The notes below the pieces were generated by a model, which saw nothing but the letters and a program-made list of their open reading frames with translations, had not been told where the DNA came from and ran no database searches. From the sequence record MN176217: 64,000 bases of DNA; one strand, written 5' to 3'. The translations under genes were made by a program, and so were the position numbers. Each line of letters opens with the position of its first letter. Position 1 is the stretch's first letter. Below are positions 7,494 through 60,219 of the stretch, in pieces. Origin of the DNA: Escherichia phage vB_Eco4M-7.

Positions 7494-9833
7494 TTATTTT
7501 GCTGCTTTCAGCGCGGCTATCTCTGCCTCGAGAACCTCGATGCGGTCCATCAATGCAAGAATAGCCTCGTGGTGCAGTGCTGCTGCTACGCCTGGTGTGT
7601 TGACAGATTTTATGTTATCCAACGTCGAACCGTCGCGCAGAGTAACAGGCGATGACTGTGTTTCAGATACTGCTTCAGGAAAGTCTTTCTCTACATCCTG
7701 GGCGATGAAGCCAAAACCGACGGAGCCATTAGTTTCCAGAGTCCATGCCACGCCTCTAATATTGCGCATCTTGACGAGTGGATCAGTGATCCGCTCAATG
7801 TTACTTTTAATACGTTCATCAGATATACTCCGCCACTCCTGACACCTTGCTATTCCATCGGAGCCAAAAAGATAAGAGGCCGCGCCGCCTGTCCCGCTGT
7901 AAACGTTCAATTGAGCGCGGTCCAGCGCGGTCGTGCTACTCCTTATGCCTCCGAGAATCCAGCTTCCGCTGTACCAGTCACCGCTGATTGAGTTTACAAA
8001 ATTTCCTTCTGGAACGTTGGCATAGTTTTGAATCCTTATGGCGTTGTTTTCTGCAGCAGCAACGCCTACTGAATTAACTGGGGATGCAACAAGGTCTTTA
8101 GACCGGATATATGCATCAACAAATATTGTTCCATCAGGGCGCAGAGTTCCAATCTGGGATGTGGAATTTGGCAACACCAATTTGCCATCTTGGTTAAATG
8201 CCCACTCTTGCACCCCATTAGATATCACCGCACCTTGTTCAGATGTTAATCCATCAATCTTGCCGTATGCCTGCAAGAATGCTTGATACGCGATGTTCGT
8301 GCCAATCTTATATTCAGATTTTACACTACCGCCTCTGACAAGCGTTCCGGTTGCAGGTTTTACTGCGTCACCATTAATGACGCTCCAAGTCGTATTCGCG
8401 GCAACAAATCCACCAGATGCACGAATCACCCAAACACCTTCAAAGGCATTAGGTCGAATTTCATTCGCATCATCACGTCCATAAGCGCCATTTGACAGCG
8501 ATGCATCAAAGTTCACGTCTACATAATAACCATCAGAAGTCCCGCGCATACTTCCAGCAGTTTTTACTATTTTTGGCTCAAATGCGCCATATCCTCGCGT
8601 CACGCCAGAGGTGCCGAATGCAGTAAGCATAGACACATTAGGTGAACCAGAAATATTTGGTGCAGCACTCTGCCTGACACGACCGTCGTTTGAAGATACA
8701 CCTCCATCACCACGCCCGAATAAACCTGGGATTGAGCCTGCTTGAACGCCGTTGCGGTCTGGAACTCGAAATGTAGTTGTGCCGTTGCCTAATGAATACT
8801 TGCCGCGTTTCGCTGGGTCCGCTAACCAATCTGCATCAGCAATAGGCGAAAGCATTTGCGCATATGCCCAAAGTTCAGGCCAATCTGCACGATTGAGTAA
8901 TTGGCCGTCAGAAACGACTTCGTAAGGCTGGATGTAAGCACGACTGTCTCGCAAGTGGAAGTCGCCGACGCCATAGTTCATAACACCGTTCATGCTTGGG
9001 CCAACGGTGCCTGTGTTCACTAAGTTCTCAACCCAACGCTTGGTTGCAGCATCATAATCGTTTACCGGATCACCAGCAAGCGGAGTCGGCCCTTGTGGAC
9101 GAATATTCAACCAAGCTTGAGCATTGTCTGCTGATCCTGTGCCGCCCATTGAAGTTGGAACGATGCTTTGATCAGCGACTTGTCCGAATCCAAAAGCAGA
9201 CTTCATCCCCTGTATGGTAGTTTGACCTGTGCCGCCATTTGCGACTGGTATAACGCTTTGCGTGTTATAAACTTGAACCCAATCAGACCAGGATGATATA
9301 TCGACGCTATACAACCTTTGGTATACTGTGTTTATCCAGTAAGGCGTGTATCTCTGCACACAGCTGTTCGTTGAAACTCCCGTTTGTAAAACTTCAAGTA
9401 TTCCAGCTTGTTCTACAGGATAGTTGAGTGCTGTTGACGCCCCAGCATTAGTCGGTTGGTAATATTGACCGAACCAGCTTCCGTTCAGCGCGTTAAGGTT
9501 TATGCCATTAGGAATTACGCCAAAGTTTCGGACAGTACCCGTCAAAGTCGCGGCAGTAGTTCGAATGGAAAGCATATCACCAGCCGCCCAAGCACGCGCT
9601 GCAGTACCTTCCTGTGCACGCTGCACGGTCAGGACGTTTCCAACAACGGCTGTTACTGTGACGATTTCGAATTGGAGGCCTGTTGCGGCGTCAACGATTG
9701 TCGCCACTACACGCTCGTTTGCGCCCAAGGTCGGAAAGCCCGACCCTGAGCGAATTGTGATTGTGGTGTCTGAAGTCGTCGTTGGCTGAGCGAGCGCGAC
9801 CTCAAAGTTGTTTTTGAATATTAGCCTTGGCAT
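7494..9833 (-). CDS. Tail fibre / tailspike protein with C-terminal intramolecular chaperone (peptidase S74-like) domain
   Basis: 779 aa; G/T/S/N-rich beta-type body; C-terminal SDERIKSNIE motif typical of the auto-cleaving chaperone, followed by a coiled-coil tail. Confidence 0.65.
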   Translation of the reverse strand: MPRLIFKNNFEVALAQPTTTSDTTITIRSGSGFPTLGANERVVATIVDAATGLQFEIVTVTAVVGNVLTVQRAQEGTAARAWAAGDMLSIRTTAATLTGTVRNFGVIPNGINLNALNGSWFGQYYQPTNAGASTALNYPVEQAGILEVLQTGVSTNSCVQRYTPYWINTVYQRLYSVDISSWSDWVQVYNTQSVIPVANGGTGQTTIQGMKSAFGFGQVADQSIVPTSMGGTGSADNAQAWLNIRPQGPTPLAGDPVNDYDAATKRWVENLVNTGTVGPSMNGVMNYGVGDFHLRDSRAYIQPYEVVSDGQLLNRADWPELWAYAQMLSPIADADWLADPAKRGKYSLGNGTTTFRVPDRNGVQAGSIPGLFGRGDGGVSSNDGRVRQSAAPNISGSPNVSMLTAFGTSGVTRGYGAFEPKIVKTAGSMRGTSDGYYVDVNFDASLSNGAYGRDDANEIRPNAFEGVWVIRASGGFVAANTTWSVINGDAVKPATGTLVRGGSVKSEYKIGTNIAYQAFLQAYGKIDGLTSEQGAVISNGVQEWAFNQDGKLVLPNSTSQIGTLRPDGTIFVDAYIRSKDLVASPVNSVGVAAAENNAIRIQNYANVPEGNFVNSISGDWYSGSWILGGIRSSTTALDRAQLNVYSGTGGAASYLFGSDGIARCQEWRSISDERIKSNIERITDPLVKMRNIRGVAWTLETNGSVGFGFIAQDVEKDFPEAVSETQSSPVTLRDGSTLDNIKSVNTPGVAAALHHEAILALMDRIEVLEAEIAALKAAK

Positions 9834-11156: not shown

Positions 11157-11387
11157 TCAGTGTGAAGACACAATTAGTGTGCCACTTCCCTTTGCGAAAA
11201 TTTCAACTCCTGGCGGGATTTCGATTGTGCCGTTAACAGCAATGCCGATCAGCTTGTCATCGGCCTTTTCCTCAAAACAAATTTCAGCAGCGCCGCCGCG
11301 AACTTGAATGAGTGCGCCGGATACGTTTTCGGCAACGGAAATAACGGAAGTATAAGAGGGAGTGAGTTGAATGTTGACTAGGGCCAT
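11157..11387 (-). CDS. hypothetical protein
   Basis: ORF 76 aa. Confidence 0.35.
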   Translation of the reverse strand: MALVNIQLTPSYTSVISVAENVSGALIQVRGGAAEICFEEKADDKLIGIAVNGTIEIPPGVEIFAKGSGTLIVSSH

Positions 11388-11474
11388 GGTTTACTCCTGA
11401 TAAAAAAATGGCCAGAAAGAATCTGGCCGAAAGATCACCCTTTATCCACTACTAAGCTGGAATCATAATTTTAC

Positions 11475-11504
11475 TTGATATAGCTTGTACAAGCAAACTA
11501 TAAT
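11475..11504 (+). promoter_or_regulatory. sigma70-like promoter (-35 TTGATA, 18-bp spacer, -10 TATAAT) abutting the terminase ORF
   Basis: Hexamers read from sequence. Confidence 0.45.
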
Positions 11505-12965
11505 ATGAATAAAATATTAACACATAATTGGAAATTCATGTACCAGTTGAATCCTGCTTTAAAAGAAGTCTGGAAGACAAAAGCGCGATACAAAGTAATA
11601 TACGGCGGTCGTGCATCTTCCAAATCGCACGATGCCGCTGGTTTTGCTATTTATTTGGCGGCAAACTTCAAATTAAAATTCCTTTGCGTTCGACAATTCC
11701 AGAACAAGATTTCTGAATCTGTATATACTCTATTAAAAGACAAAATAGAGATTTCTGATTTCAAAGATGAGTTCAATTTATTAAAGAACTCTATTGAACA
11801 TAAAAGAACTAAATCTGAATTTCTATTTTACGGTATCGCACGTAACGTTGATGAAATTAAATCAACAGAAGGTGTTGACGTCCTTTGGTTGGAAGAAGCG
11901 CACGCGCTTACTGAAGAACAGTGGGACATTATTGAGCCGACAATCCGTAAAGAAGGGTCCGAAATATGGATCATCTTTAACCCTGATGAAGAGGCCGATT
12001 TCGTCTACCAAAACTTTGTTATGCGACCGCCGAAGAATGCCATTGTTAAAAAGATAAACTGGCAAGATAATCCATTCTTGTCGCAAACAATGCTGGACGT
12101 TATCGCAGGTATGTACGAGCGTGACCCGAAAAAGGCAGAGCACGTTTATGGCGGTGTGCCGAAGACTGGCGGCGACAAATCTGTAATCAACCGCGCATTC
12201 GTTAAGGCCGCGCTAAATCTCCACAAACACCCTATGCTGGGGTGGAGTTTGTCAGGGTCTAACCGTATAGGCTTTGACGTAGCGGACGATGGCGACGACC
12301 TTAACGCCACTGCATTCGTCACAGGAAACGTATTGCGCGGCATCAAGACGTGGGAAGGTCTGGAAGATGAATTGTTGAAATCGGCAAGCGGAGTTTGGAA
12401 AGATGCGCTTACATTTGGCGCTTCTATAACTTATGACGCCATCGGTGTCGGCGCTTTTGCTGGTTCAAAATTTGATGAACTGAACGAGTATGCAATACAT
12501 GAAAATCCATCATTTCCAAGAATCGAATTTAATGCGTTCAATGCGCAAGGGTCTGTTGATGATCCTGATGACGTTTTTCTTGAATTACCACACGTTGAAA
12601 TACTCAATAAAGACCATTTCGCAAACATAAAAGCGCAAAAGTGGACTGAAATTGCAGAGAGATTCAGAAAGACATACGAATATGCAACTGGGCAAGCCGT
12701 ATATCCGACTGATGAATTGATTTCAATCGACACCGATGGTATACCGGAACTTGGGATTCCAGCTTGGACCACTGAAGAGATTGAGACGTTTCTTTTTGAG
12801 ATGTCAGCGCCGCGCAAAGATACGTCTGTTCTTGGCAAGTTCAAAGTTGAATCCAAAAAGGATATGGCAAAGCGTGGAGTTAAATCACCTAACAAAGCGG
12901 ACGCAGCAATCATGGCATTGATGAAACCAATCGTTGCAGCATCCGGCTTCTTCTCTAACCTTTAA
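11505..12965 (+). CDS. terL: Terminase large subunit
   Basis: N-terminal Walker A YGGRASSKSH, ATPase then nuclease-type acidic motifs; first gene of morphogenesis module; true start may be ATG 11538. Confidence 0.85.
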   Translation: MNKILTHNWKFMYQLNPALKEVWKTKARYKVIYGGRASSKSHDAAGFAIYLAANFKLKFLCVRQFQNKISESVYTLLKDKIEISDFKDEFNLLKNSIEHKRTKSEFLFYGIARNVDEIKSTEGVDVLWLEEAHALTEEQWDIIEPTIRKEGSEIWIIFNPDEEADFVYQNFVMRPPKNAIVKKINWQDNPFLSQTMLDVIAGMYERDPKKAEHVYGGVPKTGGDKSVINRAFVKAALNLHKHPMLGWSLSGSNRIGFDVADDGDDLNATAFVTGNVLRGIKTWEGLEDELLKSASGVWKDALTFGASITYDAIGVGAFAGSKFDELNEYAIHENPSFPRIEFNAFNAQGSVDDPDDVFLELPHVEILNKDHFANIKAQKWTEIAERFRKTYEYATGQAVYPTDELISIDTDGIPELGIPAWTTEEIETFLFEMSAPRKDTSVLGKFKVESKKDMAKRGVKSPNKADAAIMALMKPIVAASGFFSNL

Positions 12966-12968
12966 CAA

Positions 12969-13208
12969 TCAAAGCATTCCGTGCTGAAGGTCGAGTTTTC
13001 TTGCAGCAAATGACCTGGCACGGAATCGCTTACCAGCTCTTACTGCTTGCCGAATCTTCTTTTGCATACACTTACGGTCAAAATCGTTGCGGTCAACGGC
13101 TTCGAGTAAATCCCGACGCAAAGCACCTAGTGTCGACTTTTCGGATACTTCTATGCCCAGCGCGGCTGCAACATCTTTCAAAACATCGAGTTCGGTTAAC
13201 GTTCTCAT
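12969..13208 (-). CDS. hypothetical small basic protein
   Basis: ORF 79 aa on opposite strand between terminase and portal. Confidence 0.35.
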   Translation of the reverse strand: MRTLTELDVLKDVAAALGIEVSEKSTLGALRRDLLEAVDRNDFDRKCMQKKIRQAVRAGKRFRARSFAARKLDLQHGML

Positions 13209-13621
13209 TTGATAATCCCCTTGATGTCTGATTCTGCCATAAAGATTGGAGTGCCGCTGCCAGGAACAATAGAGCGCGTTACTTTGTCGAACATATCGTT
13301 CTCTTCAACTTGAATACGATAAAATTTATTTTTGGATGAAGATGGGCACAATCCAATAAATTTACCAATGCCGCGAACGCATTCATCTTCAAAGTATACT
13401 GTTTCACCTTGAATGGATTCGATGTTTTCAACCGGATACACCTTGCGACCTAAAAGCCATTCATCCATGGTCGCCTGCAACACGTTTCGCGCATCCAAAA
13501 TCCAAGGGTCAACTGTGGCACCTTCATATCGCGCAGCAGTGGCTTTTGCCAGCTCTTCATATTCGCACACATTTACTACTTCGCCTTGATGAAGGACGAC
13601 AAATACAATTGTTGTGCTCAT
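13205..13621 (-). CDS. hypothetical protein
   Basis: ORF 138 aa, overlaps downstream ORF start. Confidence 0.4.
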   Translation of the reverse strand: MSTTIVFVVLHQGEVVNVCEYEELAKATAARYEGATVDPWILDARNVLQATMDEWLLGRKVYPVENIESIQGETVYFEDECVRGIGKFIGLCPSSSKNKFYRIQVEENDMFDKVTRSIVPGSGTPIFMAESDIKGIIK

Positions 13622-13716
13622 TTCAATCTCCTTTCGTTTGGTTAACTAAAATATAACTCAAAATGATACAAAAGCAAAATATTTTATGAACTATTTATGA
13701 TTACTATACATATCAT

Positions 13717-13745
13717 TTGCTTACAAACACATGAATATTTATAAT
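13717..13745 (+). promoter_or_regulatory. sigma70-like promoter (-35 TTGCTT, 17-bp spacer, -10 TATAAT) upstream of portal gene
   Basis: Hexamers read from sequence in AT-rich gap. Confidence 0.5.
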
Positions 13746-13783
13746 ATAGATTGATTCCCTTTCACTGTCAGGTGGCGTTAACA

Positions 13784-16159
13784 ATGAAAATTCTTGGCAT
13801 AAAACTCTGGGAGAAGACGCAACCAGAAGCCGAACCAGCGGAGATGCCGCCAGGCGACCCATTGGCACCGTTTGAACGCCTTGAAAGGCGCGGCAGCGGT
13901 CAACGCTGGGAAAAGACTGAAAGCAATCGACCGACCTTTAAAACGGTTGATGACTTCCCTTTATATGAGCCTGATATCAACGGGGACGGTGTTGCAATCA
14001 TCAAAGGTCGCTCAGTAGATTCAGCAACCGTATCCAAAAAAGTTATGGATAATGCCTTAAAGAACATCAGTTCAGAAGGGCAGGTGAATCCATACACAGT
14101 GCCTATTCAGCTGCAAAACTGGTACTTATCGCAATCATTTATCGGATATCAAGCTTGCGCCATCATCGCGCAGCACTGGCTGGTGAACAAGGCTTGTTCC
14201 ATGGTAGGTCGCGATGCGGTCCGTAAAGGCTGGGAAGTAAAATCCAGCTCTGAGTCGGAATTGTCAGTACAGGCCAGCGAACGCCTAAAGCAAATTGATA
14301 AAGAATTTAATATCAAAGAGCACTTAGTTGAAGCCGAACGATTCAAGAATATTTTTGGCATTCGCGTCATCATATTTGACGTGCGCAGCGATGACCCAGA
14401 ATATTATAGCAAACCTTTTAACATCGATGGTGTGACAAAAGGGTCTTATAAGGGAATCATTCAGGTTGACCCTTATTGGATGATGCCATTCTTGACGTCT
14501 GAAAACACTGCGGACCCTGCATCACAGCATTTCTATGATCCAGAATATTGGGTGATCAGCGGACAACGTTATCACCGCAGCCACCTCATCATCTTGCGCA
14601 ACGATGAGCCAGCTGATATTCTCAAGCCGACTTATATCTATGGCGGCATTCCTCTGACTCAGCAGATTTATGAACGTATCTATGCCGCTGAACGTACCGC
14701 TAACGAAGCGCCATTGCTGGCGATGTCTAAGCGTACAACCACGCTGCGGACCGACGTTGACAAGGCGATTGCCAATGAGCGGTCGTTTGCCGAACGTTTG
14801 ATGATGTGGATTAAGTACCGCGACAACTATGCGGTAAAAGTGCTTGGTCAGAAAGAAGAGATGGACCAGTTTGACATCAACTTGTCAGACTTCGACAGCA
14901 TCATCATGAACCAGTACCAGCTGGTGGCCGCAATCGCAAAAGTTCCGTCGACAAAACTGTTAGGGACGTCACCTAAAGGCTTTAACGCCACTGGTGAGTT
15001 CGAAATGGTCAGCTATCACGAAGAATTGGAGACTTGTCAGCAGCACGATTTGACGAAGATTCTTGACCGTCACTATAAAATCCTTTTGAAATCTGAAGGT
15101 GTTGAAGTCGACGTTAAAGTGGCATGGGAGCCAGTTGGTTCACTTACTGCTACTCAGCTTGCAGAGATTAACGACAAACGAGCGAATACTGGTAAGACTC
15201 TCATTGATGCTGGCGTCATCTCCCCTGATGAAGAGCGCGACCGCATCAAGGACGACAAAAACAGCGGCTACAACCGTTTGCCAGAAGATACAGCAGAAGA
15301 AACCCCAGGGATGTCTCCAGAGAATATGGCATTGCTTGGCAAGTCTGCTGGTGAAGTTCTGCAAGGCAAAGCCGATATTGAACAGGCCAAAGCTGATGTC
15401 GTCAAGATGAGCGGCCAGTTCTATAGTAAGACTGGTATCATGCCGGAAGGTGCCGCGCGCGGTGAGTTGGCAGAAAACCCTGACAGGGCACCAGTTGAGA
15501 TTAACATGGATGATACCGATGACGAATCAAGCCATCAGGTTGATGTCCTAACGCAACTGAAAGAAGGTCTGGAGGGTATTGCTGACTATTACCTTAAAGA
15601 AGGTCAGGATGTGGATTTTGACCCTCAAAAAGACGCAAGGTCTGTGCAGCCGTCTACCCTTCCAAGCGTAAAAGGAAATGTGGTGAATTTACGCCACAAC
15701 GTAGGGAAGATGGATGCCGCATCGCTGCCTAAGATGAAGTTGCATGGAATGATTCTTGGAATCGAGAATCCTCGCAACAGCATTCGCAGGGGTAACAGCC
15801 TTGATGGTGAATGGGCAGTTAAGATGCCGCACCATTACGGATTCATCAAAGGAACCAAGGGCGCTGATGGTGATGAAGTCGACTGCTTTGTTGGACCAAA
15901 TATGAAGTCGCCTAAAGTATTCATCATTAACCAAAATGATAATTATTCTGGCGAATTTGATGAACACAAGTGTATGCTTGGATTCGATTCAGCAGAAGAA
16001 GCGAAAGAAGCATATCAGGCATCATTTGGTAACGGTTGGAATGGATTCGACTCAATCCACGAATTGGATGTAGACTCATTCAAGGAGTGGTTGAAGGGTG
16101 ATTGCTCTCAAGCATATGGAGCACTCAATAATCCTACTAATTCACCGAAGCAAGGTTGA
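13784..16159 (+). CDS. Portal protein with about 130-aa C-terminal extension carrying an inorganic pyrophosphatase-like signature
   Basis: Large ORF directly after terminase region; ATG 13784 with GGTGG RBS; C-terminal DGDEVDC motif (15864-15884). Confidence 0.6.
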   Translation: MKILGIKLWEKTQPEAEPAEMPPGDPLAPFERLERRGSGQRWEKTESNRPTFKTVDDFPLYEPDINGDGVAIIKGRSVDSATVSKKVMDNALKNISSEGQVNPYTVPIQLQNWYLSQSFIGYQACAIIAQHWLVNKACSMVGRDAVRKGWEVKSSSESELSVQASERLKQIDKEFNIKEHLVEAERFKNIFGIRVIIFDVRSDDPEYYSKPFNIDGVTKGSYKGIIQVDPYWMMPFLTSENTADPASQHFYDPEYWVISGQRYHRSHLIILRNDEPADILKPTYIYGGIPLTQQIYERIYAAERTANEAPLLAMSKRTTTLRTDVDKAIANERSFAERLMMWIKYRDNYAVKVLGQKEEMDQFDINLSDFDSIIMNQYQLVAAIAKVPSTKLLGTSPKGFNATGEFEMVSYHEELETCQQHDLTKILDRHYKILLKSEGVEVDVKVAWEPVGSLTATQLAEINDKRANTGKTLIDAGVISPDEERDRIKDDKNSGYNRLPEDTAEETPGMSPENMALLGKSAGEVLQGKADIEQAKADVVKMSGQFYSKTGIMPEGAARGELAENPDRAPVEINMDDTDDESSHQVDVLTQLKEGLEGIADYYLKEGQDVDFDPQKDARSVQPSTLPSVKGNVVNLRHNVGKMDAASLPKMKLHGMILGIENPRNSIRRGNSLDGEWAVKMPHHYGFIKGTKGADGDEVDCFVGPNMKSPKVFIINQNDNYSGEFDEHKCMLGFDSAEEAKEAYQASFGNGWNGFDSIHELDVDSFKEWLKGDCSQAYGALNNPTNSPKQG

Positions 16160-32809: not shown

Positions 32810-32866
32810 AATATTGCTTATAGACTCCTTATAGATTATAATTTGTTGATCAGATCTAAGGAGTCT

Positions 32867-58910: not shown

Positions 58911-59117
58911 TTTGCTTTTATTTTCATAGCAACTATAATCATTTTATGAACTGAAGCAGAGGTGATTCATGCAAAGCGAAGAATTGAACATCGAGGTTGA
59001 ATGTCTGTTAAAGTCGTTAGAACCTAAACCAGCAGAGCTTCCGACCCTTCAAGGAGTCATGGCTCACCATCAAGCGGCTGCGGCCAAACAATACTCTGAA
59101 TTTGTTAAGGAATAAAA

Positions 59118-60083: not shown

Positions 60084-60219
60084 TAGTTCACCAGTTATAT
60101 TGCTTTAAATTGAGTTTTACTATATTAATATACAACGCCAGATTTCTGGCGTTTATTTACCGCACCCTGAAAGGATATATCCATGCAACAATATAACAAA
60201 GCCGTATCAGGAGGATTAA

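Follow-up and report, generated by a model that had tools for sequence, protein, structure and literature searches.

In Escherichia phage vB_Eco4M-7, orf138 and orf79, two small genes on the reverse strand between the terminase (TerL) and portal genes, probably form a translationally coupled leftward operon that is the minimal survivor of an ancestral, non-structural reverse-strand block. In PB1-like myoviruses (Pbunavirus, Myosmarvirus, Kylevirus and Wifcevirus), this block would lie between a lone TerL gene and the portal/head module, and the two proteins most likely act inside the infected cell. The arrangement is ordinary and already annotated, and in a relative, 14-1, it has been mapped by transcriptomics. 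We demonstrate no new biology.

Organization of the TerL–portal locus

The window is the whole 64,000-nt stretch of record MN176217 that was analyzed. Positions 11505–16159 were 100% identical to PP596836.1, the record of Escherichia phage vB_Eco4M-7n (genus Wifcevirus, 68 kb), in which a position plus 3041 equals the window position. In 27 further Wifcevirus records, the identity to 11505–16159 was 91–98%. The two minus-strand ORFs of 79 and 138 aa described in the first-pass annotation were found between TerL and portal, as was the AT-rich gap that follows them. The genes and associated translation signals are as follows:

11475..11504, plus strand: TerL promoter, TTGATA-18-TATAAT, 11/12 consensus matches
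11505..12965, plus strand: TerL ORF, likely true start 11538; Pfam Terminase_3, E=3e-37; convergent with orf79
12969..13208, minus strand: orf79, 79 aa, 9.0 kDa, pI 10.3; second and final gene of the predicted leftward operon
13205..13208, minus strand: ATGA start/stop overlap of orf138 and orf79, 4 bp, from sequence
13205..13621, minus strand: orf138, 138 aa, 15.5 kDa, pI 4.7; leading gene of the predicted leftward operon
13628..13632, minus strand: Shine-Dalgarno sequence AGGAG, 6 nt 5′ of the orf138 ATG; listed as a ribosome-binding site in the annotation of phage Mansfield
13784..16159, plus strand: portal gene, Phage_portal_3, E=4e-88; opens the rightward structural module

The ATG at 11505 directly abuts the −10 box (11499–11504) of the TerL promoter, so the real start of TerL is probably 11538. 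The latter is the start in most records, including the PP596836 annotation. The TerL protein shares 63% identity with that of PB1. At its C-terminus, the portal protein carries an InPase domain (PF18823, E=3e-46; residues 649–771, window 15728–16096). Two metagenomic loci, L003 (contig SRR26188688_3650, 72.5 kb) and L004, likewise encode this domain in their portal genes.

Coding status and conservation of orf138 and orf79

As the first-pass annotation had assumed, orf138 and orf79 are genuine genes, and both are under strong purifying selection. In the annotated frames of seven Wifcevirus genomes, dN/dS was 0.057 for orf79 and 0.070 for orf138, as compared with 0.012 for TerL and 0.013 for portal. 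In a control, the two shifted same-strand frames of orf79 yielded dN/dS >2. The two genes were full-length in 28/28 Wifcevirus records, with 93–100% amino-acid identity. In addition to the AGGAG upstream of orf138, a GGGG 5′ of the orf79 ATG constitutes a Shine-Dalgarno sequence. The ATGA overlap implies that translation of the two genes is coupled, and a 4-bp overlap downstream of the orf138 homologue recurs in Pantoea phage Kyle (Kylevirus) and in L003. Short ORFs are common; nevertheless, the possibility that these are chance antisense-strand ORFs, with no genes present, is practically nil, being refuted by dN/dS values of 0.06–0.07, by the good Shine-Dalgarno sequences and by the conservation of the proteins between genera.

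Synteny of the reverse-strand block across genera

The pair had been described as a moron-like insertion at a conserved junction, on the premise that TerL and portal are normally adjacent and co-transcribed. That premise fails in this lineage. Opposite-strand genes lie between a stand-alone TerL gene and portal in the window as they do in its relatives: 13–14 in PB1/14-1 (Pbunavirus), seven in Serratia phage WR01 (Myosmarvirus), five in Kyle (KYLE_24–KYLE_28), four in L003 and two each in the window and L004. The exception is Burkholderia phage Maja (Bcepfunavirus), which instead has two small co-oriented genes. Further, TerL is monocistronic in 14-1.

Homologues of orf138 were identified in Kyle (KYLE_28), L003 (P0009) and PB1/14-1 (gp17, or ORF16). 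The match to PB1 gp17 (hmmsearch with the family profile, E=3.7e-10; phmmer, 2.9e-6; blastp, 7e-7) was obtained in a small database, and a profile search of 1.84 billion proteins did not reach the gp17 family. In the window, L003, Kyle and PB1, the orf138-family gene is always adjacent to portal and is the first gene divergent from it. Homologues of orf79 comprise KYLE_26, a 79-aa protein of L003 and P0013. No orf79 homologue was detectable in Pbunavirus or Myosmarvirus, and no orf138 homologue was detectable in Myosmarvirus.

The cassettes of Kyle and L003 resemble that of the window in that the orf138 homologue comes first and overlaps the next gene, an orf79 homologue is present and the promoter hexamers in the portal-proximal gap are conserved. 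By contrast, they have a trypsin-like lipoprotein gene between the two genes as well as a DUF2786/DUF7168 protein, both of which are missing from the 64-kb window. A DUF2786 protein is common to the Kyle, L003, WR01 and PB1 blocks. According to tblastn, the other block genes of PB1, WR01, Kyle and L003 have no copy elsewhere in the window.

The synteny comparison called for in the first-pass annotation found both ORFs to be conserved in relatives, and the relatives' blocks point to an ancestral gene set rather than an insertion. The occurrence of same-position homologues across genera at 25–30% identity indicates that the block is ancient. Since the smallest block of the series is that of Wifcevirus, its history would be one of reduction rather than insertion. 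The simplest reading of these comparisons is that an old reverse-strand block with gene turnover was cut down to two genes in Wifcevirus.

The pair could still be recent cargo, that is, an independent transcription unit that was inserted at the TerL–portal junction and that counters host immunity. It lies on the opposite strand with its own predicted promoter and a hairpin. Moreover, orf138 is small and acidic, like many anti-restriction and anti-CRISPR proteins; the gene content of the block differs between genera, as is typical of accessory regions; and host cryptic-prophage immunity strongly affects Wifcevirus phages. However, presence/absence polymorphism was not seen, as both genes are intact in 28/28 Wifcevirus records. 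Nor do composition and divergence set the genes apart from their flanks: the GC contents of the two ORFs (0.479 and 0.429) do not deviate from that of the window (0.461), and ∼35% of third codon positions are variable in all four genes (TerL, orf79, orf138 and portal). The syntenic homologues in other genera and the lack of any PADLOC match also argue against such cargo, which we consider improbable. The unit does share with lambdoid-type morons its small, autonomous character, with a predicted promoter and hairpin, amid structural and packaging genes. Unlike morons, it shows neither polymorphism nor a distinct composition, it dates back to the ancestor of several genera, and it resides in a virulent phage.

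In L004, the orf138 homologue P0008 (8001–8471, 156 aa) has a divergent, frameshift-like C-terminus and overlaps orf79 by 59 nt. This C-terminus may reflect an assembly error or a decaying gene.

Transcription of the corresponding block in Pbunavirus

We compared the window with published ONT-cappable-seq data for 14-1 (Putzeys et al.), which were read against the 14-1 annotation. In 14-1, a σ70 promoter, P012, has its start at 9116 (−), 21 nt 5′ of gp17, and yields a gp17–gp13 transcript (PMC10914365; bioRxiv 10.1101/2023.10.13.562163, Tables S3 and S5). A second, P013, starts at 9247 (+), 28 nt 5′ of portal (PMC10914365; bioRxiv 10.1101/2023.10.13.562163). A third σ70 promoter, P002, which corresponds to the TerL promoter of the window, drives a monocistronic TerL unit, and the longest leftward read stops at 2229, adjoining the TerL stop (bioRxiv 10.1101/2023.10.13.562163). 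Antisense transcription in relatives, which had been named as a test of the first-pass annotation, is therefore seen in these data. In PB1, a σ70 promoter is annotated at the place that matches the portal promoter of the window.

The gp04–gp17 block of 14-1/PB1 and the block in the window occupy the same position and orientation, with TerL as the lone rightward gene. The leading leftward gene, gp17/ORF16, is homologous to orf138 and, like it, is the first gene divergent from portal. The portal-proximal gap contains back-to-back σ70 promoters with mapped starts in 14-1 and a predicted pair, with conserved and enriched motifs, in the window. Leader lengths are also similar, at 21 and 28 nt as mapped in 14-1 and ∼22 and ∼32 nt as predicted in the window. 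The two blocks differ in size (13–14 genes versus two) and in the spacing of the convergent genes (36 bp in 14-1/PB1 versus 3 bp in the window). In addition, orf79 has no Pbunavirus homologue, and the window contains no homologue of Pbunavirus gp11 (YIP), gp12 or the DUF2786 protein.

In Pbunavirus, this block is referred to as the early part of the genome. Within it, gp11 of 14-1 binds the diguanylate cyclase YfiN and gp12 binds the α subunit of RNA polymerase, inhibiting transcription (PMC8085984, PMC10914365). The host-interaction role suggested in the first-pass annotation is plausible by analogy with this block, an analogy of position since gp11 and gp12 have no homologue in the window. 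On the same grounds, the most likely role of orf138 and orf79 is an intracellular one, directed at the nucleic-acid or transcription machinery of host or phage, and not that of virion or packaging parts.

The predicted divergent promoter region

The gap between orf138 and portal contains the following features:

13622..13783, no strand: intergenic control region, 162 bp, 26.5% GC (46% for the window), with back-to-back predicted promoters and a TTTATGA direct repeat
13650..13677, minus strand: predicted leftward σ70-type promoter, TTGCTT (13677–13672)-16-TATATT (13655–13650), predicted start ∼13643
13717..13745, plus strand: predicted rightward portal promoter, TTGCTT (13717–22)-17-TATAAT (13740–45), predicted start ∼13752
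13650–13677 (−), 13717–13745 (+), 32814–32842 (+), 58912–58939 (+) and 60100–60126 (+): the five copies of TTGCTT-N15-18-TATAWT in the window

Among seven genomes, only 3/162 columns of the gap were variable, versus 13.5% in coding sequence (P=2e-7). Consistent with the view that the ORF pair has a predicted promoter of its own, divergent from that of portal in the AT-rich gap, both hexamers of the leftward promoter were kept in an alignment of Wifcevirus, L003 and Kyle. For the portal promoter, the −10 element was invariant and the −35 element was conserved over 10 sequences that included L003 and Kyle, the latter reading TTGATT at −35. This promoter had been called near-consensus. While its −10 element, TATAAT, is perfect, the −35 element, TTGCTT, has 3/6 matches, so the label is slightly generous. 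Indeed, it was because of the 3/6 matches at −35 that a promoter scan missed both gap promoters and listed weaker alternatives instead.

The five occurrences of TTGCTT-N15-18-TATAWT in the window compare with 0.18 expected. They precede orf138, portal and the primase gene, the other two being at 32814 and 58912. Given its copies in front of portal and of the primase gene, the motif does not on its own identify a temporal class such as 'early'.

Several additional features of this region were observed. A direct repeat, TTTATGA...TTTATGA, lies at ∼13683–13704, between the divergent −35 boxes. In L003, both copies read TTTTTGA, and this parallel change points to a binding site that is present twice or to an UP element. 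At the 5′ end of portal (13784–13903), 1/40 of the first third codon positions varied, versus 38% in the remainder (P=5e-7). Similarly, 6/55 of the first third codon positions varied at the 5′ end of TerL (11538–11700; P=3e-5). No such synonymous freeze was found at the 5′ ends of orf138 and orf79. The predicted fold of the portal 5′ mRNA did not exceed that of shuffled sequence in stability (z +0.4). Open frames do exist antisense to the frozen portal segment, and none of them recurred among the antisense frames listed for relatives.

The convergent end of the block

orf79 and TerL converge, with 3 bp between their stop codons. The 3′ end of orf79 contains the following inverted repeat:

12976..13026, no strand: hairpin with arms of 9 + 5 bp, inside the orf79 3′ end and 11 nt beyond the TerL stop; candidate site at which the convergent transcripts end

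On the minus strand, the hairpin has a ΔG of −24 kcal/mol (z −2.2) and is followed by GCUUUGAUUGUU. On the plus strand, the ΔG is −27 kcal/mol (z −3.4), with no canonical T-tract. In eight Wifcevirus-type sequences, the arms were invariant and the loop was variable. The hairpin is missing from L003, whose block does not end with orf79. We annotated it as a probable terminator, a candidate that has neither a canonical U-tract nor covariation. Rfam returned nothing in the window or in 11300–14000.

Properties of the two proteins

A structural model of the orf138 protein (pLDDT 69) has a confident N-terminal ββαβ unit and a β-rich, poorly resolved C-terminal half. That of the orf79 protein (pLDDT 85) comprises a helix (residues 6–17), a loop and a long helix of ∼50 residues (27–78). 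The latter protein is bipartite in charge, with an acidic N-terminal half (pI 4.6) and a very basic C-terminal helix (pI 12).

The profile searches proposed in the first-pass annotation gave nothing significant for either protein in Pfam, PHROGs, NCBIfam or PADLOC. The sole PHROG matches were to families of unknown function, phrog_5124 (E=2.7e-4) and phrog_2130 (E=1.7e-3). Profiles of both families yielded chance-level matches at most among PDB sequences (E≥0.09, limit E=10). Neither protein had a fold match, and for orf79 no Foldseek hit in the PDB had an E-value below 2. PADLOC, Pfam and fold comparisons did not match orf138 or orf79 to known components of anti-defence or defence systems. 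Homologue searches recovered close relatives only (9 and 4 clusters in a word-indexed search), and the orf138 family has five representatives among 1.84 billion proteins.

Two candidate assignments were rejected. The LEM- or SAP-like two-helix proteins found by Foldseek with orf79 had E-values of 5–6 and were considered noise. A CarD/TRCF RNA-polymerase-interacting domain in the C-terminal half of orf138 was matched in 1/8 family members (Pfam, E=0.17), and hhalign gave it a probability of 3.8% against the N-terminus of Mycobacterium tuberculosis CarD.

Separately, P0017, a protein of 1651 aa encoded outside the window, has six separate stretches that match positions 20–53 of the orf138 profile (E=8e-5). 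It may be a repeat protein that carries the N-terminal motif, or the match may be a low-complexity artefact.

Virion mass spectrometry of vB_Eco4M-7 and ECML-117 detected neither gp32 (orf79) nor gp33 (orf138), while it did detect gp30 (76 aa) and the portal protein, gp34 (PMC7048862). Non-virion accessory factors for packaging or head assembly, such as a DNA-binding helper of the terminase or a chaperone of the portal or procapsid, were considered separately. The orf138 family has stayed next to portal in four lineages while other block genes turned over, the basic helix of orf79 could bind DNA, and TerS lies away from TerL in this lineage (∼58 kb away in E217; PMC9611059). We nevertheless judge this role unlikely. 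The E217 TerS is defined elsewhere in the genome, and neither ORF matches PDB chains, including 7UXE; the two genes are opposite in strand to the structural genes and form a separate transcription unit; homologues of orf79 were not detected in Pbunavirus or Myosmarvirus, nor one of orf138 in the latter; and the shared divergent promoter region can explain the adjacency to portal.

TerS itself was rejected as an identity for either protein. No terminase, including E217 TerS (7UXE), was among the PDB profile matches, orf79 encodes a 9 kDa protein as compared with a TerS size criterion of 15–21 kDa (PMC9611059), and both genes are opposite to TerL. At the position syntenic with E217 TerS (window ∼700–1700), a search for the Wifcevirus TerS gave no PDB or PHROG terminase match. 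The ORFs at 706–1137 and 1134–1670 had no PDB match, and their PHROG matches were of unknown function only.

The order and charge of the products, in which two small overlapping genes encode an acidic (pI 4.7) and then a basic (pI 10.3) protein, recall a type II toxin–antitoxin-like pair whose upstream protein neutralizes the downstream one. Such a pair is highly improbable, as the two genes are split by the protease gene in Kyle and L003, PB1 has the orf138 homologue alone, and no toxin or antitoxin family was matched in Pfam or PADLOC.

Proposed mode of expression

For the window, we infer the transcript ends, their timing and the function of the proteins, and propose the following scheme for a two-gene remnant of the ancestral block. 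Host σ70 RNA polymerase would start at the leftward arm of the back-to-back promoter pair, the other arm of which would drive portal. It would transcribe orf138 and then orf79, and would most likely stop at the hairpin in the 3′ end of the latter, head-on with the TerL transcript. The result would be two small, non-virion proteins: an acidic gp17 homologue, α/β and β-rich, and a bipartite protein with a long basic helix.

More speculatively, the gap, the first 120 nt of portal (together ∼280 nt, near-invariant) and the operon might constitute a timing switch. Binding of the orf79 and/or orf138 proteins to the TTTATGA repeats would shift expression away from the leftward unit and towards the portal/head module, and head-on transcription at the 3-bp TerL/orf79 junction would delay TerL until the leftward promoter shuts off. 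We regard this as a long shot. If it were true, the phage, for which an unusually short latent period has been reported, would have a compact early-to-late switch specific to its lineage.

In PB1-like myoviruses, a lone TerL gene and reverse-strand genes before portal are normal, and such an arrangement is not to be read as a sign of insertion. As lineage-restricted and strongly conserved genes, orf138 and orf79 are candidates for explaining how these fast-replicating phages take over the cell. Since engineered E. coli K-12 now supports the growth of some Wifcevirus isolates (BASEL Bas98–101), the two genes are tractable, and reporter or binding assays could be aimed directly at the near-invariant promoter gap.

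Features to the left of TerL

Not all genes of the reverse-strand block left of TerL are non-structural. A 76-aa protein (11157–11387, minus strand) was found with a high score in particle mass spectrometry, and a tail fibre of 779 aa that ends in an S74 chaperone-peptidase domain (7494–9833, minus strand) is encoded away from the main tail module. Directly 5′ of the Shine-Dalgarno sequence of the 76-aa protein gene is a strong intrinsic terminator (11400–11428, minus strand) that consists of a 7-bp GC-rich stem and AUUUUUUUAU (ΔG −15.9, z −3.3). It sits 3′ of the sole promoter-like site for this gene (11491–11462) and may serve as an attenuator in the leader, or else end transcripts that run antisense across TerL. 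The same element is annotated as a terminator in phage WFC.
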